The notes under the pieces were generated by a model. That model saw only the letters and a program-made list of their open reading frames with translations, had not been told where the DNA came from and searched no databases. Shown here one piece after another: positions 5,158 to 37,109 of a stretch of 41,346 nt of DNA (its first letter is position 1; the number at the start of each line of letters is the position of its first letter). Made by a program: the position numbers and the translations under genes. The DNA comes from a virus, in UHGV virus genome UHGV-0007810. One strand, 5' to 3'.

Positions 5158-5172
5158 TTACCGTTGAGGTAA
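5158..5172. promoter_or_regulatory. Operator-like palindrome TTACCGTTGAGGTAA
   Basis: Exact TTACC-N5-GGTAA, 20 nt upstream of the first gene of the leftward early operon. Confidence 0.55.
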
Positions 5173-5219
5173 TAATTATGCGTATTTGGTTTGATGTCAA
5201 TAGATATGAGTTAAAAAAA

Positions 5220-5291: not shown

Positions 5292-5876
5292 TTATTGTTT
5301 GTTTTTTTCGTTCTGGTTGATGACAAATTCAATGTAACTTTCGATCTTTGCTTTCTCGGTTTCGGGTAACAATGCGTAGCGCGAGCGGTCATAGTTGATG
5401 GTCGCAGGGTCGTGCGGGTGAATCAGTAATTCATAGCCGTGACGCCCGAATGCGGATGCAACATTCTCCAGGGTGGAAATGGAAACGCTGACCTCATTGT
5501 TTAACAGGCGACTGATTGTCACCTGGGCGACGCCGGATGCGCGGTGAAGTTTTCCCTGCGTTGAAAGGTCGCGGCTTTCGCTCATCCAGCGTTCCAGGTT
5601 GTGAGCCGCCAGCTGACCAATGTCGCTTGGGCCGACAGGCTGAAAACCTTCCTGAGAAAGCGAGCGATCGATATCAAGCCAGTTACGGGGTTTATTGGCG
5701 GCAGCTTCAATTTTTCGTGCAACCTGGTCGCCGATAACCTTCTTGCCAAGAGCCCAGCGGTTTACCAGATTTGCCTGAGTTCCAAGTTTTTCTGCCATCC
5801 GCGTCTGAACACCATTGAATTCACGGTCGATCAAGTCGTTGAGATTTTGCCTGCGGACGTCCTGGATACTTTTCAT
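5292..5876 (-). CDS. CI-like phage repressor with two helix-turn-helix regions, no LexA-like peptidase domain
   Basis: 194 aa; HTH-like segments near the N-terminus (QTRMAEKLGTQANLVNRW) and the middle (ASGVAQVTISRLLNNE); divergent from the cro-like gene; no G-D-S-M / Ser-Lys cleavage-domain signature seen. Confidence 0.7.
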   Translation of the reverse strand: MKSIQDVRRQNLNDLIDREFNGVQTRMAEKLGTQANLVNRWALGKKVIGDQVARKIEAAANKPRNWLDIDRSLSQEGFQPVGPSDIGQLAAHNLERWMSESRDLSTQGKLHRASGVAQVTISRLLNNEVSVSISTLENVASAFGRHGYELLIHPHDPATINYDRSRYALLPETEKAKIESYIEFVINQNEKNKQ

Positions 5877-5931: not shown

Positions 5932-5946
5932 TTACCCAACAGGTAA
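5932..5946. promoter_or_regulatory. Operator O1 in the repressor/cro intergenic region
   Basis: TTACCCAACAGGTAA, exact. Confidence 0.6.
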
Positions 5947-6316: not shown

Positions 6317-6331
6317 GTACCTCAAAGGTAA
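6317..6331. promoter_or_regulatory. Operator-like palindrome (variant) GTACCTCAAAGGTAA
   Basis: Just downstream of the post-cro terminator and upstream of the replication operon. Confidence 0.45.
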
Positions 6332-8277: not shown

Positions 8278-8324
8278 TAAAATATTCTAAAATCTATTGA
8301 TTTCGTGTCTTATGTGGTTTTTAA

Positions 8325-8339
8325 TTACCTAAGGGGTAA
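8325..8339. promoter_or_regulatory. Operator-like palindrome TTACCTAAGGGGTAA
   Basis: Exact; overlaps the putative -10 and ribosome-binding region 4 nt before the ATG at 8343. Confidence 0.55.
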
Positions 8340-14076: not shown

Positions 14077-14153
14077 TGGCGTGGCATGCAGGATTCGAAC
14101 CTGCGACCAACCGCTTAGAAGGCGGTTGCTCTGTCCAACTGAGCTAATGCCAC
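14077..14153 (-). tRNA. tRNA-Arg (anticodon UCU)
   Basis: Reverse complement folds as a cloverleaf: acceptor GTGGCAT/ATGCCAC, D-stem GCTC/GAGC, anticodon stem ACCGC/GCGGT with loop CTTCTAA (anticodon TCT), T-arm GCAGG-TTCGAAT-CCTGC, discriminator G and CCA. Confidence 0.9.
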
Positions 14154-14490: not shown

Positions 14491-14580
14491 TAATTCGCGC
14501 GTTAAATGTCAACTGTCTACGATAAATAAATCATATGTGGTTAAATTGGTAATAATTTAATTGCGTACGGAGTCATTGAT

Positions 14581-28084: not shown

Positions 28085-30559
28085 ATGAGACAGGAATGTA
28101 TACAAGCGGTCCAGCAGGCGGCGCAGCGCACGTTAACGGCGCGAGAAATACAGAACATTGAAGACCGCATTTATCGAAATATGCGCTCCATTGCTCGTGA
28201 TGACCCGATGTCGTGGCGACAACTTTCCGAATCAGAACGGTTGTATCGTGCAGCACAATTGGCATCTGAAGAATTACAGCGAGAAGCGGCATTAAAGAAA
28301 CGTCGTGTGGCTCTCACTATAGCCGCACGTCAGAGATTGGATAAATTTATCAATAGCTATCAAGGGGCTGATGGGAAACTTGGCGCTCTTAACCGTACTA
28401 TTGCTTTTAATGCAGACGGTAAATCGAATTTCCTCTCTGTTGAGTCCAGAACAAAAGCCACTCGTGATTATGCATTGAGTCAATTGCAGGAGGCATTCGA
28501 AGCAGTTGATCCTCGCTTTTTTGGCCTGTTTGAAGATGAAGCGGGCGTGCGTGACCTGGTATATGAAATGCGAGGGCAAAATACTGGCAATGCTAAAGCA
28601 AGAAAAGGTGCTAAGGCGTGGAGAGAAGTGACAGATCTACTCCGCCGCCGGTTTAATGATGCTGGTGGGGACATTGGCTATCTCGAAAACTGGGGGATCC
28701 CTCAACATCATTCTATGGAAAAGGTTGGGGCGGTATCAAAAGATAAATGGGTTAGCGATGTTATAGGTAAGCTGGATCGCAAATATTATACCCGAGCCGA
28801 TGGACAACTGATGAACGATGCCGAGTTGTCTGCATTTCTTGGAGAGGCTTATAACACGATCGCTACTGGTGGGCTGAATAAGCTTACTGATACCGGAATG
28901 CGAATTTCCGGCGCACGTGCTAACCGTGGTAATGCATCACGACAGATACATTTCAAAGATGCAGATTCCTATCTGCAATATCAGCAACTTTATGGCGATC
29001 GCTCTCTATGGGAAATCATGGTCGGTCACCTGGAAGGTATCAGTAAAGATATTGCTCTGGTGGAAACATATGGTCCAAACCCCGATCATGTTTTCCGCTC
29101 CCTTCTTGATCAGGTTAAGGCAGAAACGGCAACAGCTAACCCGAGTAAAACCGGTAGCGTCGAGCGTCTGGCGAACAAAACAGAGAACTTGTACAACTTT
29201 ATTTCCGGAAAAACACAGCCTGTAGCGAATCCCCACATCGCGCGATGGTCTGACAATATCCGCAACTGGCTGGTTGCCAGCAGACTCGGATCCGCGTTGC
29301 TGTCATCGTTCTCTGATCTTGGAACCATGTATCTGTCTGCGAAGGTTACCAACCTTCCAATGAACCAGTTATTTCGCAACCAGCTTGAAGCTATGGACCC
29401 AACGAACCGTACTGAGCTTGCGCGGGCGCGCCGCGCTGGCCTGGCGATGGAATCTCTACTTGGCAGCGTTAACCGCTGGGCGATGGATAATATGGGGCCG
29501 TCTGTGTCTCGTTGGGCGGCAACGGCGGTAATGCGTGCCAGTGGGCTTACAGCATGGTCAGATGCGCACAAGCGCGCCTATGGCGTAACCATGATGGGAA
29601 GCCTGGGAGAAGTAGTGTCACGGACACCAGACCTTCGTAGCCTCGATGACTCTGATTTTCGTATCCTGAAAAGTAAAGGGATTACTGACACAGACTGGAG
29701 CGTATGGAAGCTGGCGCAACAGGAGGACTGGGGGAACGGTAATAATACGATGCTGACACCGGAAAGCATTATGCGTATCCCTGATTCAGCAGTTAAACAT
29801 CTTGGTGAGCCTGAACGCGTGAAATTTGAGGCAATGCGTAAACTGCTCGGTGCCGTAACTGAAGAAGTTGATATGGCTGTTATTACACCGGGCGCACGTG
29901 AGCAGATGTTCGTAGGGTCTGGTCTTCAGCGTGGAACATGGAAAGGTGAATTAACGAGAAGTGTTTTCCTGTTTAAATCGTTCCCTATCTCGGTTGTTAT
30001 GCGTCACTGGTCACGCGCTATGGGTATGCCGTCTGCTGGTGGGCGTGCAGCATATATAGCAACGTTTTTAGCAAGCACAACCATGCTTGGTGCTCTTTCC
30101 ATGCAGATTACTGATCTTATTAATGGGAGAAATCCAAAGGAAATGACCGGTGACCACATGGTTAAATTCTGGATAAATGCATTTTTAAAAGGTGGCGGGG
30201 CTGGGTTGTACGGTGATTTTCTTTTCTCTGACCACACTAGGTACGGGAGCGGCGCGCTGGCGTCGATGCTTGGCCCGGTAGCTGGTCTGGTTGATGATGT
30301 AGTGAAGATTACTCAGGGCATACCGTTAAATGCTGTGGAAGGGAAGAGTGAGCAGACTGGTGGTGATCTGGTGAAGCTGGGGAAAGGTTTGATGCCTGGT
30401 GCGAATCTCTGGTACTTGAAGGCGGCTCTCGATCACATGATCTTTAACCAGATGCAGGAGTATTTTTCACCAGGTTATTTGCGTAAAATGGAGCAACGTT
30501 CGAAGAAAGAGTTTAACCAGACATACTGGTGGCGACCACAGGATGTCACTCCGCAATAA
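28085..30559 (+). CDS. Internal virion / ejection protein (T7 gp16-position)
   Basis: 824 aa; last and largest of the ejection-protein block; hydrophobic stretch near residues 640-680. Confidence 0.55.
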   Translation: MRQECIQAVQQAAQRTLTAREIQNIEDRIYRNMRSIARDDPMSWRQLSESERLYRAAQLASEELQREAALKKRRVALTIAARQRLDKFINSYQGADGKLGALNRTIAFNADGKSNFLSVESRTKATRDYALSQLQEAFEAVDPRFFGLFEDEAGVRDLVYEMRGQNTGNAKARKGAKAWREVTDLLRRRFNDAGGDIGYLENWGIPQHHSMEKVGAVSKDKWVSDVIGKLDRKYYTRADGQLMNDAELSAFLGEAYNTIATGGLNKLTDTGMRISGARANRGNASRQIHFKDADSYLQYQQLYGDRSLWEIMVGHLEGISKDIALVETYGPNPDHVFRSLLDQVKAETATANPSKTGSVERLANKTENLYNFISGKTQPVANPHIARWSDNIRNWLVASRLGSALLSSFSDLGTMYLSAKVTNLPMNQLFRNQLEAMDPTNRTELARARRAGLAMESLLGSVNRWAMDNMGPSVSRWAATAVMRASGLTAWSDAHKRAYGVTMMGSLGEVVSRTPDLRSLDDSDFRILKSKGITDTDWSVWKLAQQEDWGNGNNTMLTPESIMRIPDSAVKHLGEPERVKFEAMRKLLGAVTEEVDMAVITPGAREQMFVGSGLQRGTWKGELTRSVFLFKSFPISVVMRHWSRAMGMPSAGGRAAYIATFLASTTMLGALSMQITDLINGRNPKEMTGDHMVKFWINAFLKGGGAGLYGDFLFSDHTRYGSGALASMLGPVAGLVDDVVKITQGIPLNAVEGKSEQTGGDLVKLGKGLMPGANLWYLKAALDHMIFNQMQEYFSPGYLRKMEQRSKKEFNQTYWWRPQDVTPQ

Positions 30560-30568
30560 GGAAGTGTT

Positions 30569-30742
30569 GTGTTTTTAATTATTTTGAGTGTGATAATTTC
30601 TGGTGGATTGTTATTTATTGACCGCTACAAATATTTTCTTAACCCTCAGACTCAAGCTATTTGCTGGTTCATCTTTGTTGTGCAGGGAGTAGTTCTTGTT
30701 GCAAGCCTTATTGAGGGGAGGCCTCTTATTTTTACTGGGTAA
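30569..30742 (+). CDS. Small membrane protein (57 aa, two predicted TM helices)
   Basis: Not in the ORF track; hand-translated from GTG 30569 (AAGGAAG 5 nt upstream): MFLIILSVIISGGLLFIDRY...AICWFIFVVQGVVLVASLI.... Confidence 0.35.
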   Translation: MFLIILSVIISGGLLFIDRYKYFLNPQTQAICWFIFVVQGVVLVASLIEGRPLIFTG

Positions 30743-30755
30743 ATTAGGTGACTAC

Positions 30756-31052
30756 ATGCAAGCTATAGGATTCATTGTTTATATCGTCGTTGGTCTTTTT
30801 CAGTTGGCAGCAATTATGGCTGGGCTTGAATCATGGTGGGGATTGCACTGGATAATTGCAGCCCCCATTGCTTTCATCGTGAGCTATATTCCATTTGTTG
30901 GAGCGATTGTTGGTATGGTTGGCGCTGTGGATGTATGGCGGTGGGAGTGGTGGCAGGCTGGCCTTCTCTTCTTTGGTGGGATCATCTTTGCTATTGTCTG
31001 CGGTGGAATGTCATCATTTTTCGAACGGCTATCATTCAGAAAAGGAACGTGA
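30756..31052 (+). CDS. Membrane protein (about 98 aa, three predicted TM helices)
   Basis: ATG 30756 with AGGTGA upstream; hydrophobic throughout; stop codon lies inside the 12-bp palindrome at 31049. Confidence 0.5.
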   Translation: MQAIGFIVYIVVGLFQLAAIMAGLESWWGLHWIIAAPIAFIVSYIPFVGAIVGMVGAVDVWRWEWWQAGLLFFGGIIFAIVCGGMSSFFERLSFRKGT

Positions 31053-31060
31053 CATGTCAC
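31049..31060. repeat. Perfect 12-bp palindrome GTGACATGTCAC (copy 3 of 3)
   Basis: Exact; directly abuts the terminator hairpin at 31061-31085. Confidence 0.8.
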
Positions 31061-31085
31061 AGGCCGCTTTCGCGGCCTTGTTTTT
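31061..31085 (+). terminator. Rho-independent terminator after the membrane-protein gene
   Basis: AGGCCGC-TTTC-GCGGCCT followed by TGTTTTT. Confidence 0.65.
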
Positions 31086-31245
31086 AACGAATGCCACCGC
31101 CACCCGGGCGGGAATCCGCAGAACGCCCACCGCAGCGGGAGCCGTCAGCGGCAGTATCGCTGTCGTGCTGACAACGACCGGCAAAGGCCTGAGTTGAAGC
31201 TACCAGAGACAACAAAACGAACAGTGCAGCAAATGCTTTTTTCAT
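31084..31245 (-). CDS. Possible small secreted peptide (53 aa with signal-peptide-like N-terminus)
   Basis: MKKAFAALFVLLSLVASTQAFA followed by a 31-aa Cys-containing tail; GC-rich segment, and the opposite strand also has an ORF, so coding status is uncertain. Confidence 0.3.
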   Translation of the reverse strand: MKKAFAALFVLLSLVASTQAFAGRCQHDSDTAADGSRCGGRSADSRPGGGGIR

Positions 31246-31313
31246 TGTGAAATTTCCATCTATAATCCACCTCAATGTGGCGTCAATGAGTGTAGCACTG
31301 ACTTTTGTTTCGT

Positions 31314-31338
31314 CCACAAAAAAGCCCGCGGCGCGGGC
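31314..31338 (-). terminator. Rho-independent terminator after the AT-rich gene
   Basis: GCCCGCG / CGCGGGC stem with an 8-nt A-run on the + strand (T-run on the - strand). Confidence 0.6.
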
Positions 31339-31884
31339 TTATTCCTTCCATTTATCAGAAAAAAGATCTTCTTCTAAAGGCATTGGTTCTGTTTTTGTTT
31401 TCTCAAAGAATTGATAACTGATAGTGATTGCTGCCTCTTTAAACTCTTCTTGCTCAGTTATGTTGTGGGCATCTGCGTCAACAAAAAACATAACCAGCGC
31501 ATCACGATTGTGATTTACCGAATAAACTAAAAAGCAATTACTTGTTGGTATGCATTTTACTTGCACAGACGCTATTTTTTTCCATGCATCCCAAGATGAT
31601 TTTTTACCAGTGTGTTTTTTATCACTATCTTCTGGAATATAGTCTTGGTTATCGACATGAGTATGCCTGACATTTAGTTTAAGCATTTCTGTCGGACGAG
31701 CAAATGCAGCATCTTTACCAAGAGATGGATGGTATCCCGTTTTCCAATACTGGGTAAAGGCATCAGATACTTTCTTCAGCTCAAGATCAGATGCACAAAG
31801 GGCCGAGAAATTTTGCGTATGCAATACTCGACCCTTATATCTGACAATTTGATTTTTATCATTCTGCGACGCAGACGAACTCAT
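31339..31884 (-). CDS. Hypothetical protein with possible YafO-like toxin domain (AT-rich moron)
   Basis: About 181 aa from ATG 31884 (AAGGAAA 5 nt upstream); visibly AT-rich relative to the surrounding DNA; GYHPSLGKDAAF...VRHTHV...FLVYSV resembles YafO-family toxins as recalled (unverified). Confidence 0.55.
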   Translation of the reverse strand: MSSSASQNDKNQIVRYKGRVLHTQNFSALCASDLELKKVSDAFTQYWKTGYHPSLGKDAAFARPTEMLKLNVRHTHVDNQDYIPEDSDKKHTGKKSSWDAWKKIASVQVKCIPTSNCFLVYSVNHNRDALVMFFVDADAHNITEQEEFKEAAITISYQFFEKTKTEPMPLEEDLFSDKWKE

Positions 31885-32038
31885 AATTTTCCTTATTGTT
31901 ACGAGAATCAAAGAAAGCGCGGGATACGCGACTTGCGTGATCTTTTGTCATAGTAACTTTTACGCACTCTACGCTTCCATTGAAAGAACGTCTTGCGGCA
32001 GCTTGCGCTCTACGCATCTGCAATTTTTCGTTTCGCAT
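31859..32038 (-). CDS. Hypothetical small basic protein (59 aa) upstream of the YafO-like gene
   Basis: Not in the ORF track; hand-translated MRNEKLQMRRAQAAARRSFNGSVECVKVTMTKDHASRVSRAFFDSRNNKENYEFVCVAE; GAGGT Shine-Dalgarno 7 nt upstream; overlaps the downstream gene by 26 nt. Confidence 0.3.
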   Translation of the reverse strand: MRNEKLQMRRAQAAARRSFNGSVECVKVTMTKDHASRVSRAFFDSRNNKENYEFVCVAE

Positions 32039-32098
32039 GACATTACCTCATATCTCATAAGTTCATTACACGGATTAATAAAAATGAAACCAATCCGT

Positions 32099-32113
32099 TT
32101 ACCCTTGAGGTAA
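32099..32113. promoter_or_regulatory. Operator-like palindrome TTACCCTTGAGGTAA
   Basis: Exact; in the promoter region of the leftward small-ORF / YafO-like unit. Confidence 0.55.
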
Positions 32114-32161
32114 TAGTACGCTATTCACCCACAGTCTGCAATCTGTACAGAATTATTTAAA

Positions 32162-32177
32162 GGCACATCCCTGTGCC
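32162..32177 (-). terminator. Terminator-like hairpin after the Bro-N gene
   Basis: GGCACA-TCCC-TGTGCC 9 nt beyond the stop, followed on the - strand by a T/A-rich stretch. Confidence 0.35.
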
Positions 32178-32185
32178 GCCGCCCG

Positions 32186-32881
32186 TCAGAAGAACCCTGC
32201 CTTGTCGTTGATGTACTCCGCGTGCGTCTGGATATCACGCAGGCATTTGCTCACACCGACGATGTAGCAGAACATGGTGGTCAGCTCCGCCGCCGCGCCC
32301 GATACGTCGTGCCCGTCGTCCTGTAACTGGTTCAGCAGATTCATCAGCAGTGAGTTCTCCGTCAGGCCGAGAACACCAGACGGCGAATGAATCAGGCTGC
32401 GGTAGCCGGGCTTCAGTGGGGCACTGTAGGTTTTGTTCTCTATCTTCATCGCCTGCATCACTGCTGATGCTGTGGCGTTGGCTACCTGGTCGGCAACCAT
32501 CTTTATGCGCTCTTCCTGCGGGAGCGAGTTTTTAATGTAACTTCCGGTGCGGCGGATCTGAGGAAGAACCTCACCTGTAACCCATTTACGAAAGCGGTAT
32601 GGGATAGTGCCTGGTGTCACTGCGTCGCGGCAGCGGAGGATCAGTGTGTAGAGGCCTGACTCGGAGATGATGATCGATTCTTGCTCACCGCCAGGGGTGT
32701 CGGTTGAAGCGACGCCCTTCTCATCATCATCAAGTTTTCGAACAGCATCTCGATGGTTTGCTATGCCTATAGCCCGACAAACATCTGAAGCGATAAACCA
32801 TGGCTCACCATTAATGACGATTACTCGTATATCGGCTTGGGATTCGAAAGAAAAAATGGACGTGCTTTTTGTAGCTGTCAT
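32186..32881 (-). CDS. Bro-N domain protein (antirepressor-like), C-terminal domain paralogous to 34029..34286
   Basis: 231 aa; N-terminal FESQADIRVIVINGEPWFIASDVCRAIGIANHRDAVRKL is a classic Bro-N signature; C-terminal ~70 aa align with the small LexA-box gene product. Confidence 0.75.
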   Translation of the reverse strand: MTATKSTSIFSFESQADIRVIVINGEPWFIASDVCRAIGIANHRDAVRKLDDDEKGVASTDTPGGEQESIIISESGLYTLILRCRDAVTPGTIPYRFRKWVTGEVLPQIRRTGSYIKNSLPQEERIKMVADQVANATASAVMQAMKIENKTYSAPLKPGYRSLIHSPSGVLGLTENSLLMNLLNQLQDDGHDVSGAAAELTTMFCYIVGVSKCLRDIQTHAEYINDKAGFF

Positions 32882-33150
32882 AGTGGTTACCTTTTAGTCA
32901 GGTTAATCACCACTACCGACGCCAATCGGTTGGTGGTGAACTGTGCAGGGTTGGCGTAACCGGCTAAAAGGACCCGGCGCACCTTTCGGTGCCCCCACAC
33001 AGCCCACCATAATACGAATGTGGCCGTGCTATACGCATAAAAAAACCGCTTGCGCGGTGAATGCGCCTTTTAGTAATCCGGGACGCCAATCCCGGCACTG
33101 GATTTTGCCAGTGCCCGATTACTATGGCACAAGAGGAGTGCAATGTAAAT

Positions 33151-33165
33151 TTACCGCAAAGGTAA
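33151..33165. promoter_or_regulatory. Operator-like palindrome TTACCGCAAAGGTAA
   Basis: Exact; in the divergent region between the Bro-N gene and the zinc-ribbon gene. Confidence 0.55.
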
Positions 33166-33243
33166 TGATAAACGCGGAGAAATATTAAAATCAACCGCAT
33201 TTGGTTGATTGCGTTTAACGCTTGATCACCTGAAAGCAAGATA

Positions 33244-33258
33244 TTACCTTTAAGGTAA
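33244..33258. promoter_or_regulatory. Operator-like palindrome TTACCTTTAAGGTAA
   Basis: Exact; 20 nt upstream of the ATG at 33279. Confidence 0.55.
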
Positions 33259-33278
33259 TGTTATTGTGAGGAAAAGCA

Positions 33279-34007
33279 ATGGAAGTTTTCTGGATAGTTG
33301 TTGGTGTTGTTACGGTGATTATTTACGTTATCAACCAGAACAGGACTAAGGTCTCTGATCGCACAGTCGTTAATCATCGCAAAACGATAAAGACCGAAGA
33401 TGGAGAAATAACGATTAATCGTACACAGGTGATAGACCACACCTCCACTCAGTTTCAAAAAACTGGAGGTAATGCGCCTAATATTTCCGCACCTCCTGCT
33501 TATGATAGTGCGGTAATCCAGACATATTATAAACAGCAGGAGTTAGCAAAAGAGAGGCAACTGATTCAGCCAAAGCCATTTACAGCAGAGCTTCCACCTG
33601 GAGTGTCAACGCGTCCGGCATATCATGGAAGATTCCCTGGTGATGACATATCGTCTCAGTCATCTAAAAAAGCACCTCAGGCAGTATCAGAGCCAGCAAG
33701 AATACCTTCTGTATCGCCGCCAAAAGAAGAATCAGCTAACAGAGTTTCAAGTGGTAGCAAGCAGTGCTTGCGATGCAGAATAAACCTTCCATATGAAAAA
33801 TTCAGGAAATCGTCAAAAAATCCAGATGGATTGACTAAGTGGTGTGCAAGGTGTCTCGATGGTCCAAAGAATACACGCCATATGAAGTGGTGCCCAATTT
33901 GTAATGTCCGCAGAAAACGAACCAGCTTTTACCCTAATAATCAAAATGCGGATGGCTTAATGGCATGGTGCAAAACGTGCTGGGACGAGCACAAAGCGAA
34001 ACGATAG
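33279..34007 (+). CDS. Membrane-anchored protein with tandem C-x2-C ... WC-x2-C zinc-ribbon-like repeats
   Basis: 242 aa; N-terminal TM helix (FWIVVGVVTVIIYVI), Pro/Ser-rich linker, two repeats CLRCR...DGLTKWCARC and CPICN...DGLMAWCKTC. Confidence 0.6.
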   Translation: MEVFWIVVGVVTVIIYVINQNRTKVSDRTVVNHRKTIKTEDGEITINRTQVIDHTSTQFQKTGGNAPNISAPPAYDSAVIQTYYKQQELAKERQLIQPKPFTAELPPGVSTRPAYHGRFPGDDISSQSSKKAPQAVSEPARIPSVSPPKEESANRVSSGSKQCLRCRINLPYEKFRKSSKNPDGLTKWCARCLDGPKNTRHMKWCPICNVRRKRTSFYPNNQNADGLMAWCKTCWDEHKAKR

Positions 34008-34030
34008 GCCGCTCTAGCGGCCTTTTCTTT
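34006..34030. terminator. Bidirectional terminator-like hairpin between convergent genes
   Basis: AGGCCGC-TCTA-GCGGCCT followed by TTTCTTT. Confidence 0.55.
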
Positions 34031-34286
34031 ATGTGGTTTGTTTTCGTAATTGTTCGGCACAATAGTCGAGATGTGTTTGCAAATCCTGCATAGACATCTG
34101 TGAGCTGGTGACGTAGTTAATCAGTGCAGTCAGTTCGGCAAGTGGGCCATCGACATTAAATCCATCCTTATCGAGATCCCGGAGTAATTTCATCAAGTGC
34201 GATCCCTCCACCAGTGACCTGACGCCTCCCGGCGTGTGAATCCTTTCGGTAAATCCGTCTTCCAGTGGATAGTGATACTGCTGCAT
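34029..34286 (-). CDS. Small protein behind a LexA box (candidate SOS-induced antirepressor)
   Basis: About 85 aa from ATG 34286 (GGAG 8 nt upstream); homologous to the Bro-N protein C-terminus; consensus LexA box 22-37 nt upstream of the start. Confidence 0.6.
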   Translation of the reverse strand: MQQYHYPLEDGFTERIHTPGGVRSLVEGSHLMKLLRDLDKDGFNVDGPLAELTALINYVTSSQMSMQDLQTHLDYCAEQLRKQTT

Positions 34287-34307
34287 CTTATCTTCTCCAT
34301 GCAATAA

Positions 34308-34323
34308 CTGTATATTTATACAG
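34308..34323. promoter_or_regulatory. LexA (SOS) box
   Basis: CTGTATATTTATACAG with flanks AA...TA; matches CTGT-N8-ACAG and the consensus TACTGTATATATATACAGTA at 18 of 20 positions. Confidence 0.7.
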
Positions 34324-34362
34324 TATCAAATAATTTGTTTGCTATCCAGCACGTTTTGCAAA

Positions 34363-34377
34363 TTACCCGAAAGGTAA
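34363..34377. promoter_or_regulatory. Operator-like palindrome TTACCCGAAAGGTAA
   Basis: Exact; between the LexA-box promoter and the tail-fibre gene. Confidence 0.55.
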
Positions 34378-34481
34378 TATCTGTTCATATTCACAGTCTT
34401 TCTATCCATATGTGGTTTTTCAGGTAATAGAATAACCAGATATGCGGCGCAACGGGTGCTGCGACTATCTGGAGATTTAAC

Positions 34482-37109
34482 ATGACGGTCTCAACCGAAG
34501 TTGACCACAACGAATACACAGGTAACGGCGTTACGACATCATTTCCGTATACCTTCCGTATTTTCAAAAAATCCGACCTGGTTGTTCAGGTGTCTGACCT
34601 TAACGGTAACGTAACAGAACTAGTGCTGGATGCTGGTTATACAGTAACAGGGGCGGGAACTTATAGTGGCGGTGCAGTGGTTCTTCCGTCGCCGCTTGCT
34701 GCTGGCTGGCGAATCACGATAGAGCGTGTGCTTGATGTGGTGCAGGAGACTGATCTTCGCAATCAGGGAAAATTTTTCCCCGAAGTTCATGAAGATGCAT
34801 TTGACTACCTGACGATGCTGATCCAGCGATGTTTTGGGTGGTTCAGACGTGCATTGATGAAACCATCTTTGCTTGCAAAATATTACGATGCAAAGCAAAA
34901 CAGAATTTCCAATTTGGCCGATCCGAAGAACTCTCAGGATGCTGTAACAAAAAAATATGTGCAAGACTTATATAGTGGGGTAGTTAGGCCTGATAACATC
35001 GACAACGCAATGTATGTTACAGATCTCGCTAATGGCAAATATGACAGCTCTCGCTTGGACATGTCTGTCGGGTATGAGATAAAAACCATTTCAAACTTTG
35101 TCAGGATTAATGGGGCTGTTTATCGTGTTACTCCTGCTGCAGTCGGCATAGTGACAGAAATAACCTCGCGTTACATTTTGGCCGGAGGGAAAAAAAGCTA
35201 CCTGTCTCATATTTCCAGGCATGTCAGTGGTACGCGTAGGCCGCTGAACTGGAAATTAGAATTCAGCATCATAGACGATGAGATTACCGCAGATCTTAAA
35301 GATCAGTATGGTTACACGACCATGGGATTTCAGGGGATTTACATAGACAGCAATGATGGAATGGTATACATCGGCTGGCAGACGCTAGACCCCGCATCGG
35401 TATGGGTTACGGTGCATGACTGGGTAACAGGAGCATTGGTAACACGTCTTCATTTTCCGAATAACGTTGGTGCACCAGAAGGCATCCACGTTTACCGAGT
35501 GGCAGGACAGCGTTACATCCTGCTGCCGTACAGCCCATCTCGCACTATCAGAATTTACCCTATCGAAGATCCGCGTACGCTGGTTGATAAAACGCAGATT
35601 ACAAACTTCACTGAATCAACACGCCTTGGAGTGCGATATCAGTTTAGTGGCTTTGGTAATACCCTGATATACGAAAATGCGGATATGGGTTGGCCGAAAA
35701 TTTTTGATGTTGAGACAGGTGTATCCAATATCTTTAACACACTGGATATTAACAGCCTTATAGAAGGATCTTACAGTCCAATGGGGACTATTACGGTTGA
35801 TGCAAATGTTGGAGGTCGCGGAGCCGGTAAACCAAAACGGCAGGGTGTCGCTCTTGGTTCTCAACGGATATTTGCTGGTATTGGTGCATCTACCACGGCG
35901 GGATCTGGAAATACTTTCGCAGGGTTGCAGGGTTATATTGAGTACAGCCTTAATGGTTCAGAATTAGGTCAGTACCTGCTGTCACCTGCAGATTTCAAAA
36001 CATACTGGGATAGTTATTCAGGGAAGAGTGTTTACTCCACTGAAAATGAGGGGGTGCAGTCTTGTGATATTTCTGGCTCTGAGGAATTGTATCTTCTACA
36101 GTCTATTCGCTATGACAATGGGGGCGGATCAAATTATAGGACTTTAAACATCATTCGCGCTAACTGTCCATCTAATGAACCTGGAACAGTAGACATGACT
36201 CCGCTATCCAATGCCTCATCACAGTTATTTAACCCTCGCGGAAGGGTGATTAACGCTGGCCGTCACCCTGTAAACCCGGCTGATGGTATTGCGCTATTTA
36301 CATCGGCACAGGCTATTTGTGACTATTTGCGGAATACAGATGCAGGTAGATATGTGACATATCTTGAACAGGATATGCCACTGTTTGAAGGTGGGCCATC
36401 TGCGCCAGGACAGATGACGCTGCCAGCATTCTGCCTATTGCAGATCGACTTCATCAACGGCGATACCTGGGAAATTACAGTTAATGGAACTAACAGGGCT
36501 AATAATTATACAGGAAGGATTTCCAAAAACGGCGGGTACAACTCTTTTACTAAGGTGTCCTCCCGCAGCATGTCGATTCTCGGATCCCCTGGTCTGGTTG
36601 ATGTATCAATTCGCTCACCTAACTCACTAAATCTTCCAGAATTTGCTGGAGACTGGTCTACTGGTGTAAGTATAGGAGCTGCAGGTGGGGTGACAAACTG
36701 GCAGCCAGAAGGAACAGGTAACGGAGCATTATGGGAGTCAGGATATGCAAAAAACCGTGTGTTGCAGATATTCATGTCCACAACATCAAAGCTGTTCTTC
36801 CGCTACGCAGACGATGCTATTCGCGCAGGTAACACAGGCTGGGCTGAGGCATGGTCGTCGCTGAACACGACCGTCGATTCAAGTGGTTTCATCAAAAAAG
36901 CCTCTCCGGTTGTGAAGATTTTCTCAGACGGTAGTAGTGAAACAAATCGCGAATCAGATGGGGTAACCGTCACACGGCTGGCATTGGGTGAATATCTGAT
37001 TGAGGGTTGCGTAGGTCTGAATGCAGATGCTTCATGGGGGGGGATTGATGGTGGATTTGAAATACCGCAGGACCGAAACAAGCAGCCGCTCATCGGATTA
37101 TGTTGTTAA
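34482..37109 (+). CDS. Tail fibre / tailspike protein
   Basis: 875 aa; GGAG Shine-Dalgarno; N-terminal ~150 aa resemble the T7 gp17 virion-attachment domain as recalled (YTGNGVTTSFPYTF..., ISNLADPKNSQDAVTKKYVQ). Confidence 0.75.
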   Translation: MTVSTEVDHNEYTGNGVTTSFPYTFRIFKKSDLVVQVSDLNGNVTELVLDAGYTVTGAGTYSGGAVVLPSPLAAGWRITIERVLDVVQETDLRNQGKFFPEVHEDAFDYLTMLIQRCFGWFRRALMKPSLLAKYYDAKQNRISNLADPKNSQDAVTKKYVQDLYSGVVRPDNIDNAMYVTDLANGKYDSSRLDMSVGYEIKTISNFVRINGAVYRVTPAAVGIVTEITSRYILAGGKKSYLSHISRHVSGTRRPLNWKLEFSIIDDEITADLKDQYGYTTMGFQGIYIDSNDGMVYIGWQTLDPASVWVTVHDWVTGALVTRLHFPNNVGAPEGIHVYRVAGQRYILLPYSPSRTIRIYPIEDPRTLVDKTQITNFTESTRLGVRYQFSGFGNTLIYENADMGWPKIFDVETGVSNIFNTLDINSLIEGSYSPMGTITVDANVGGRGAGKPKRQGVALGSQRIFAGIGASTTAGSGNTFAGLQGYIEYSLNGSELGQYLLSPADFKTYWDSYSGKSVYSTENEGVQSCDISGSEELYLLQSIRYDNGGGSNYRTLNIIRANCPSNEPGTVDMTPLSNASSQLFNPRGRVINAGRHPVNPADGIALFTSAQAICDYLRNTDAGRYVTYLEQDMPLFEGGPSAPGQMTLPAFCLLQIDFINGDTWEITVNGTNRANNYTGRISKNGGYNSFTKVSSRSMSILGSPGLVDVSIRSPNSLNLPEFAGDWSTGVSIGAAGGVTNWQPEGTGNGALWESGYAKNRVLQIFMSTTSKLFFRYADDAIRAGNTGWAEAWSSLNTTVDSSGFIKKASPVVKIFSDGSSETNRESDGVTVTRLALGEYLIEGCVGLNADASWGGIDGGFEIPQDRNKQPLIGLCC
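37036..37043. repeat. G8 homopolymer near the tail-fibre 3' end
   Basis: Eight consecutive G, 66 nt before the tail-fibre stop, where a +1-frame ORF begins. Confidence 0.9.

Follow-up and report, generated by a model that had tools for sequence, protein, structure and literature searches.

In phage P22, an antirepressor region, immI, is situated between the ejection gene 16 and the tailspike gene 9. In the Salmonella phage SPC32H, a member of the genus Uetakevirus, the antirepressor Ant is made after the self-cleavage of LexA and inhibits the prophage repressor via protein–protein contact (PMC7380047), breaking the tetramer of this repressor, Rep (PMC9638917), and in the prophage Gifsy-1 the isrK–orf45–anrP arrangement controls the translation of the antirepressor-like anrP and contributes to induction (PMC4825925). 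The subject of the present analysis is an island of 3,922 bp in the UHGV virus genome UHGV-0007810 (41,346 nucleotides (nt), called the window below), which extends from the end of a gp17-like virion gene (position 30559) to the start of the tail-fibre gene (position 34482). This island is probably a secondary immunity and induction-control region of an epsilon15/phiV10-type podovirus, with mosaic cargo around it, and it is taken for the positional and functional counterpart of immI in Uetakevirus because the antirepressor region of P22 has the same place between ejection gene and tailspike gene. In composition it is the antirepressor switch already known from SPC32H, to which an RNA-gated antirepressor of the P1/Gifsy type has been added, surrounded by moron-like cargo.

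A preliminary description of the window had pointed to an island of ~3.9 kb between an ejection gene and the tail fibre, with genes on both strands, four operator copies, a LexA box, terminators and an AT-rich gene, and all of these were confirmed in the sequence. Eight open reading frames (ORFs) are listed, at 30569–30742, 30756–31052 and 33279–34007 on the plus strand and at 31084–31245, 31339–31884, 31859–32038, 32186–32881 and 34029–34286 on the minus strand. The operator TTACC-N5-GGTAA is present in four exact copies (at 32099, 33151, 33244 and 34363), strong terminator hairpins are found at 31061–31078, 31322–31340, 33045–33058 and 34006–34023, the interval 30000–35000 as a whole holds 17 terminator-like hairpins where 5.0 ± 2.2 were expected, and the G+C content is 38–40% in the region of the YafO-like gene versus ~50% in the flanks. 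The accompanying assumption that the tail fibre normally follows directly after the last internal virion protein does not hold for the temperate podoviruses P22, SPC32H and phiV10. Several of the genes stand in public annotation as “hypothetical protein”, “BRO-N” or “YafO toxin”; together they would form a region that controls lysis and lysogeny of the prophage.

The SOS-controlled antirepressor

The gene next to the tail fibre, ant (34029..34286, minus strand), encodes a small protein of 85 amino acids (aa), residues 2–85 of which were aligned by phmmer to chain E of the PDB entry 5D50 (E = 1.3e-47, ~89% identical), the “anti-repressor protein” of Salmonella phage SPC32H. Judged by this match, the gene is the antirepressor gene ant, the ortholog of that in SPC32H; the preliminary description had listed it as a small SOS gene. 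The LexA box AACTGTATATTTATACAGTA (34306..34325), a near-consensus site, lies over the ant promoter, with the core CTGTATATTTATACAG at 34308–34323, ~20 nt upstream of the ant start codon. Among 102 distinct homologous spacers between ant and the tail-fibre gene, 101 have an exact box, and the 8-nt spacer within it occurs in nine forms. Two places only distinguish SPC32H from SPC32N, its sibling with clear plaques, and one of them is a G>T change in the CTGT of the aligned LexA box; the SPC32N mutation reportedly leads to constitutive synthesis of Ant. By analogy with SPC32H, Ant would bind Rep in this prophage too and release it from the DNA. A second CTGT-N8-ACAG sequence (34381..34396) was considered and set aside as probably fortuitous, being exact in 4 of the 102 regions and agreeing with the LexA consensus at 13 of 20 positions.

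Upstream of the ant promoter, the spacer towards the tail-fibre gene contains a repressor operator (34362..34378), which is present in all 102 intergenic regions and is also kept in SPC32H and in relatives from Citrobacter, Erwinia and Scandinavium. It is followed by a promoter-like element, CCATATGTGGTTTTTCAGGTAATAGAAT (34405..34432, plus strand), conserved as far as SPC32H. An element of the common form CATATGTGGTT(T/A)3..GGTAATA(G/A)AT occurs at three sites of the window (8306–8330, 14533–14560 and 34405–34432), at each of them downstream of a full operator (~45–55 bp from start to start); the first site precedes an early gene, the second the structural operon and the third the tail-fibre gene. 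This suggests that the tail fibre may have a repressor-controlled promoter of its own behind the terminators of the island.

A second antirepressor behind an RNA leader

The Bro-N gene of the island, here called bro-ant (32186..32881, minus strand), encodes a candidate second antirepressor. The Bro-N domain (aa 17–107; Pfam, 76.7 bits) had been noticed before, and it was the C-terminal domain that had escaped attention: residues 150–226 match SPC32H Ant (5D50_E, E = 1.9e-13) and fall into phrog_450, the PHROG to which Ant itself belongs. Bro-Ant is identical in 230 of 231 residues (99.6%) to ORF4 of phage vB_EcoP_ZX5, the overexpression of which brought the prophage titre from ~1e9 to 1e6 and shifted the balance towards lysis (PMC9782041). 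In one relative (L049, protein cluster C45) the Ant-like C-terminal domain is joined to an N-terminal domain other than Bro-N, an arrangement that indicates domain shuffling on a constant repressor-binding module.

The 400 bp between bro-ant and the neighbouring gene znr hold two RNA genes that had been missed, both on the minus strand. Transcription would start at the promoter P_isrK/bro (33150..33194, minus strand), which has TTGATT as –35 (33189–33194), an 18-nt spacer, TATCAT as –10 (33165–33170) and an operator at 33150–33166, and which is conserved in 45 aligned variants. The first RNA is an IsrK-type small RNA (33039..33114, minus strand; Rfam RF01394, 77.9 bits versus a gathering score of 50) that ends in a terminator hairpin (33045–33058) followed by U7 and contains two decoy sites, a1 (33067–33074, the single-stranded sequence CUAAAAGG) and b1 (33083–33090); at the same place the c4-a1b1 model RF03163 reached 45.1 bits versus its threshold of 46.7. 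An initial placement of a1 in the first hairpin loop of IsrK proved wrong, the covarying a1 being the single-stranded site just given. The second is a C4-type antisense RNA (32929..33014, minus strand; RF01695, 77.7 bits versus a gathering score of 45, E = 1e-15) with the loops a′ CCUUUUAG (32964–32971) and b′ ACGCCAA (32951–32957). Between C4 and the start of bro-ant lies a 5′ leader (32882..32928, minus strand) with the two target sites b2 AUUGGCGU (32919–32926) and a2 CUAAAAGG (32891–32898). The b′ loop is complementary to UUGGCGU of the leader, a2 covers the Shine–Dalgarno sequence 9 nt before the bro-ant AUG, and the C4 loops are complementary also to the identical sites within IsrK.

The pairing was followed through 45 distinct variants from related prophages, which comprise three “a” alleles and three “b” alleles in seven combinations, with the copies in IsrK, C4 and the leader co-varying in all alleles. 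Pairing of C4 with the leader (a′ with a2, b′ with b2) is retained in 100% of 692 cells, 6 of the 16 pairs showing compensatory changes, and pairing of C4 with IsrK (a1 and b1) likewise in 100% of the cells with 6 compensatory pairs; even a 1-nt insertion co-occurs on all three partner sites. When the partner was slid by 1–3 columns as a control, 26–48% of the cells paired (26–46% for C4 and the leader). RNAduplex applied to the whole RNAs gave long duplexes and was uninformative. C4 would repress bro-ant and may be processed out of a primary transcript, and the allele pattern looks like the immI specificity of P1 and P7, to which it may be analogous.

A 37-codon ORF runs through C4 (32887–33000, minus strand; 1779–1892 in L175) and is annotated in phage ZX5 as “ash family protein”; it has no Pfam match, and the annotation has probably arisen because an RNA gene was read as a protein-coding one. 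A coupling ORF of the icd/orf45 type is doubtful, since the frame of the 37-codon ORF differs between the insertion alleles of a′/a2. More than 100 records of Stx1- and Stx2-converting phages match the query in 32906–33108 only, that is, in the C4/IsrK module, at ~81% identity, and the module is there without annotation or called “hypothetical protein”. It is the sole part of the island that is common to these Shiga toxin (Stx)-converting phages, and because it is common to them, it may affect induction crosstalk and the release of Shiga toxin.

The master repressor and its operators

Outside the island, the minus-strand gene rep (5292..5876) encodes the master repressor of the prophage, a protein of 194 aa that matches SPC32H Rep (5D50_A) over its full length (E = 4e-42). 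Its only Pfam domains are HTH domains (HTH_3), and a Peptidase_S24 (autocleavage) domain was not found by the Pfam search. Rep would be the trans-acting partner of both the operators of the island and the antirepressors. Allowing at most one mismatch, the motif TTACC-N5-GGTAA occurs 17 times in the window versus 0.77 expected by chance; in SPC32H the same motif has 18 matches versus 0.69 expected. Both genomes have clusters of it in the rep–cro interval and at the early-left promoter, with copies in the window at 5932 and 5980 between rep and the divergent cro-like gene, at 5158 and 5220 at the early-left promoter, and at 6317, 8263, 8325 and 14476 before other operons.

The early-left promoter (5158–5200) is laid out as TTGACA, spacer, –10 and an operator directly after it, and the promoters of isrK/bro (TATCAT|TACC...) and of the toxin pair described below (TTGCAG-17-TACTAT|TACC...) share this layout. 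At these two mapped island promoters the operator overlaps the –10/+1 region, as at the early-left promoter, and because of this the cargo promoter and P_isrK/bro are predicted to be closed in the lysogen and opened by induction. Of the roles first proposed for the cargo, i.e., lysogenic conversion, defence or regulation, the regulatory one has held for a part of the content; conversion is unlikely for most of the cargo, given the repressor operators over –10/+1, and defence found no match to any known system.

The switch would then work as follows. DNA damage would remove LexA, so that Ant would be made; Ant would strip Rep from its operators, and both the early promoters and the Rep-operated promoters of the island would open. 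The isrK–C4–bro-ant transcript would now appear, and because C4 would restrain the translation of bro-ant and IsrK would titrate C4, Bro-Ant may be made only under strong transcription, upon which it could reinforce the switch or act on the repressors of related prophages.

Origin of the window and variability of the slot

By its closest nucleotide matches, which are phages of the genus Uetakevirus (epsilon15/phiV10-type temperate podoviruses) and E. coli prophages, the window is a Uetakevirus prophage of E. coli. HEMP4, phiv142-3 and phiV10 are the top phage matches, with ~95% identity across the flanking virion and tail-fibre genes. The entire 3.9 kb is present at 99.4% identity in one complete E. 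coli chromosome (NZ_LS992166), and a part of the region was matched in 1,025 of 5,426 complete E. coli genomes (~1/5). The left anchor of the slot, the gp17-like virion (ejection) protein (28085..30559, plus strand; phrog_684 virion structural protein, 1278 bits), is homologous to phiV10 p20 and to SPC32H_018; the right anchor is the tail-fibre or tailspike gene (34482..37109, plus strand), the N-terminal 160 aa of which match tail protein PHROGs and which has the Pfam domain Phage_tail_C_2. Upstream of the structural operon there is a transfer RNA (tRNA) gene (14080–14153, minus strand; Rfam, 73 bits), and SPC32H has a tRNA-Arg at the corresponding place.

The slot between the two anchors was surveyed mainly on IMG/VR contigs, which are mostly from close relatives in E. 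coli. A search of genome contigs with the single Ant sequence gave 5 loci, and a second sample, anchored on the C-terminus of gp17 and thereby avoiding a bias towards ant, gave 72 complete slots. The greedy ORF calling mislabels some N-terminally extended Ant ORFs as Bro-Ant, and the presence counts therefore use a corrective length filter. In the gp17-anchored sample the slot measures 645–5,634 bp (median 2,954), and when the gp17- and ant-anchored samples were pooled, 87 distinct slot sequences in 66 gene architectures were counted at 113 loci, so that the suspected variable hotspot was borne out by the synteny comparison. The order of the parts is constant: gp17, plus-strand membrane proteins or lipoproteins (four alternatives), an optional sp53 and one minus-strand cargo position on the left; bro-ant with its RNAs (51 of 72 loci), znr (16 of 72), ant and the tail fibre on the right. 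The antirepressor gene ant was present in 72 of the 72 complete gp17-anchored slots and is the sole invariant gene; all other slot content is mosaic. In one slot (L113) a pair of IS3-family transposase ORFs (clusters C52 and C53) has been inserted, and neither a transposase nor an integrase was found in any other of the surveyed slots.

These counts bear on the notion that the island genes are conserved accessory components of virion assembly or of the tail fibre, such as chaperones or adaptors, which would agree with their position inside the structural gene order and with the fact that the first two genes, tm57 and tm98, follow gp17 without a detectable promoter. Relatives with a 91–100% identical gp17 make do with 645-bp slots that hold ant, sometimes an ORF of 46–48 aa (tm47) and no other island gene; the other seven genes of the island are each present in at most 51 of the 72 loci, and Ant is an antirepressor of solved structure. 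The synteny survey refutes such a structural role, which is scarcely conceivable any longer: a conserved structural component was not found among the island genes, and the only invariant one is the regulator ant.

The cargo socket and its toxin pair

The minus-strand cargo position is framed by two constant elements. On one side stands a promoter with its operator (32098..32141, minus strand), composed of –35 TTGCAG (32136–32141), a 17-nt spacer, –10 TACTAT (32113–32118) and the operator ATTACC-N5-GGTAAA (32098–32114) that covers +1; on the other stands a terminator (31322..31340, minus strand), the hairpin AAGCCCGCGCCGCGGGCTT followed by T6, which is fused to the stop codon of the cargo. This promoter–operator is kept before most of the alternative cargo families, with similarity ending directly past ...GGTAA, and a second upstream promoter variant (–10 TAATAT) is found before some of them; the hairpin GCCCGCG-nnn-CGCGGGC-T6 follows nearly every alternative cargo gene in the relatives. 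In the gp17-anchored sample, 48 of 72 loci have a socket occupied by one of ten families and the other 24 an empty one, the families including three YafO-like lineages, DUF4760, DUF2335, phrog_1349 and several without annotation. None of the 18 proteins tested (8 from the island and 10 alternative cargo proteins) matched a known defence system in PADLOC-DB v2, and NCBIfam had no match for any island protein.

In the window the socket is occupied by a pair of overlapping genes. The AT-rich gene (31339..31884, minus strand) encodes a 181-aa candidate toxin with a RelE/HigB fold, which qualifies as a ribonuclease fold of the RelE superfamily; in a search of PDB sequences with the profile of the toxin family no match was obtained. 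The preliminary description had called it a YafO-like toxin with an upstream small ORF. The fold and the conserved partner were upheld, and membership in the YafO family was not: with Pfam YafO (PF13957) the protein scored 23.4 bits, below the cut-off of 25, and a sister cargo family (C56) passes with 34.4 bits. The partner, ORF59 (31859..32038, minus strand; 59 aa, phrog_6685), is a candidate antitoxin that overlaps the start of the toxin gene by 26 nt; it matched no known antitoxin family in Pfam, NCBIfam or PADLOC and has no recognisable DNA-binding domain. ORF59 travels with the toxin, at 55–61% identity, in a Serratia podophage, the slot of which also has a Bro-N gene and an Ant homologue beside the tailspike, and in a Kosakonia lambdoid prophage, where the pair stands between lysis and terminase genes; in both it is again placed behind a promoter that ends in TTACC-N5-GGTAA. 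Because ORF59 accompanies the toxin in these contexts, the pair is accepted as a candidate RelE-fold toxin with a cognate partner. In the Kosakonia prophage (L173, 4740–4790), which is of siphovirus type with the pair between Rz and HNH/terminase, the promoter reads TTGACG-17-CAGAAT followed by TTACCTTAAAGGTAA, and since the operator is present there as well, its type is not limited to Uetakevirus.

Another candidate for the cargo promoter, TTGGTT-17-TGTAAT with the inverted repeat ACGGATT...AATCCGT as a toxin–antitoxin (TA) operator, was rejected, as this leader is cargo-specific and not conserved before the pair in Serratia or Kosakonia. The best sigma-70-like match of the region, TTTTCA-16-TATAAT (10 of 12), is situated at 31239–31266 on the plus strand; its rightward orientation leads into the YafO-like gene at the 3′ end, so that an antisense transcript could arise from it.

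For a cargo that Rep would silence, the best guess is early-lytic accessory functions that come on along with the early genes, such as host shut-off, competitor exclusion or counter-defence. The socket might, however, work as an abortive-infection tripwire, in which the toxin fires when the antirepressor of an invading phage inactivates the resident Rep and kills the cell before the invader completes its cycle. The operator at +1 of every socket promoter, the several cargo families with RelE-fold or YafO-like toxins and the recurrence of the same pair, in an unrelated lambdoid setting, downstream of a TTACC-N5-GGTAA promoter would all fit such a device, as would the crosstalk between Salmonella prophages by trans-acting antirepressors, which has been documented (PMC7380047). 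Yet the SOS induction of the resident phage itself would trigger the toxin, the co-expressed upstream ORF would neutralise it, and most cargo families are no recognisable toxins, which together make this idea rather improbable. A broader proposal, which we offer as a fairly unlikely speculation, is that the socket is gated by the master repressor and that at least ten unrelated families, including three RelE-fold toxin lineages, are swapped in it by recombination in flanks of ~45 bp and ~25 bp. The cargo, fired by derepression, might serve in counter-defence, host shut-off or as a tripwire against the antirepressor of an invader, and with the 3 × 3 alleles of C4 the slot might be a combinatorial module of prophage competition. 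If the repressor-gated socket is real, it is a compact and recognisable place in which to seek new early-acting accessory functions of phages.

The left flank, znr and the question of accessory cargo

Behind gp17 follow two plus-strand genes for small membrane proteins, tm57 (30569..30742), which starts 10 nt after the gp17 stop and encodes 57 aa with two hydrophobic helices, and tm98 (30756..31052), a 98-aa multi-helix membrane protein (phrog_3075, 182 bits) that is annotated as a coding sequence in NZ_LS992166. The promoter scan found no promoter-like site on the plus strand in 30000–30570, before tm57, and other loci have tm47, a lipoprotein (C6) or the pair C14 and C15 in the place of tm57. 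A G+C-rich terminator (31061..31078; 7 pairs, 6 of them G–C, then a T-run) separates tm98 from the convergent gene sp53 (31084..31245, minus strand), which encodes a 53-aa pre-peptide with a Sec-type signal (MKKAFAALFVLLSLVASTQAFA|GR...) and belongs to phrog_14503, “membrane associated protein”, in the moron category (137 bits). The promoter of sp53 consists of TTGACG (31281–31286), a 16-nt spacer and TATAGA (31259–31264) and is free of an operator. With a promoter and a terminator of its own, and a presence in 24 of the 72 gp17-anchored loci, sp53 qualifies as a moron; it is the sole island gene in the operator-free layout of promoter, gene and terminator that is expected of a gene expressed in the lysogen, and such expression is predicted for it. 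Apart from sp53, only the genes of the small membrane proteins behind gp17 are plausible candidates for expression in the lysogen or late in infection. Slots without sp53 (e.g., L037, L038 and L060) retain ~40 nt from the 3′ end of its coding sequence (...GGCGGTGGCATTCGTTAA), just past the socket terminator, and because of this 3′ remnant the absence of sp53 is regarded as a deletion and not as ancestral.

On the other side of the RNA genes, znr (33279..34007, plus strand; phrog_6762, 497 bits) encodes a 242-aa protein that is anchored in the membrane by its N-terminus and has two zinc ribbons (CxxC...WCxxC) at the C-terminal end of a low-complexity linker. Local similarity of this protein to the zinc motif of endonuclease VII and to Lar-like PHROGs is weak. 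An operator, ATTACCTTTAAGGTAAT (33243..33259), is placed 20 nt upstream of its start codon and is found upstream of znr in relatives too; the promoter of znr could not be mapped. A hairpin terminator (34006..34023) lies between znr and the convergent ant.

Taken by themselves, sp53, with its operator-free promoter, terminator and “moron” PHROG, and the hypervariable slot could speak for an accessory island that is expressed from its own promoters in the prophage and serves lysogenic conversion or anti-phage defence, with no part in the control of the phage life cycle. The toxin-like pair resembles type II TA modules, which have often been connected with defence, the superinfection-exclusion gene sieA of P22 has the same position, and a lone operator may repress weakly. 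However, the eight genes include two antirepressors, one of which is under the control of two RNA genes, in the two mapped promoters the repressor operator overlaps –10/+1, ant is invariant, and PADLOC gave no match for the 18 island and cargo proteins. A purely accessory island is thus unlikely, and a secondary region of immunity and induction control accounts better for this set.

Several points nonetheless weigh against reading the island as such a control region. All island promoters are predictions at the level of the consensus, and the promoter scan as a whole returned 8 sites versus 9.3 in shuffled sequence. That Rep binds TTACC-N5-GGTAA is inferred from the location of the motif, and SPC32H Rep is described as a tetrameric DNA-binding protein whose dimer binds weakly (PMC9638917), so that the lone operator at the cargo promoter may repress partly and be leaky in the lysogen. 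The overexpression experiment in ZX5 is a crude one. Independent covariation events in the RNA module are few, because there are ~3 alleles per site that recombine among close prophages. Finally, a TA pair that is silent in the lysogen would fit neither addiction nor classical abortive infection.

Comparison with known systems

The arrangement as such is already known from P22 and SPC32H. The closest likeness is with SPC32H (PDB 5D4Z and 5D50), which is of the same genus and has ant annotated in the same slot, with the gp17-like gene on one side and the tailspike on the other; Ant is ~89% identical, Rep is homologous over its full length, the LexA box is equidistant from ant and an operator stands in the ant–tailspike spacer. 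The Rep proteins have clearly diverged (full-length E = 4e-42), and the slot of SPC32H holds only a 46-aa membrane protein and ant, whereas the prophage described here adds a Bro-N antirepressor, two small RNAs, a zinc-ribbon protein, a toxin pair, a secreted peptide and two membrane proteins. In phiV10, ant or a gp19-like gene is annotated at the same position.

P22 carries sieA–orf59a–mnt–arc–sar–ant at this place, from gene 16, the last ejection gene, to gene 9, the tailspike gene, and shares with the island an antirepressor under the control of an antisense RNA. Small ORFs on either strand are present there too, together with a gene for membrane exclusion. Its Ant, Arc and Mnt are, however, unrelated to the SPC32H-type Ant, its antisense RNA is sar and not of the C4 type, and P22 orf59a has no similarity to ORF59 of the window. 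The ant gene of P22 is not controlled by LexA, and its repressor C2 is cleavable by RecA.

With immI of P1 and P7 (c4–icd–ant) and with Gifsy-1 the prophage has in common that the RNAs of RF01695 and RF01394 stand upstream of an antirepressor gene on one transcript, that the RNA loops are complementary to sites on both sides of the RNA, and that specificity alleles exist, as between P1 and P7. It differs in that a2 lies over the antirepressor gene's own ribosome-binding site, that the promoter carries an SPC32H-type Rep operator, and that the antirepressor is a fusion of Bro-N with an Ant-like domain.

The toxin pair is like YafNO, HigBA and RelBE in having a small upstream ORF that overlaps the start of the toxin and in moving between phages as a unit, whereas its toxin of 181 aa is ~50 aa longer than YafO, its partner belongs to no antitoxin family, and its promoter has the operator of a phage repressor in place of an autoregulated TA promoter. 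Finally, the island resembles the morons of HK97/lambda and prophage cargo hotspots such as the P2/P4 defence hotspots, with units of promoter, gene and terminator between conserved genes and many alternatives per position. Unlike in these, its junctions lie within a few nt of a repressor operator and of a terminator hairpin fused to the stop codon, the socket promoter is predicted to be repressed in the lysogen, and the cargo is without a known defence match.

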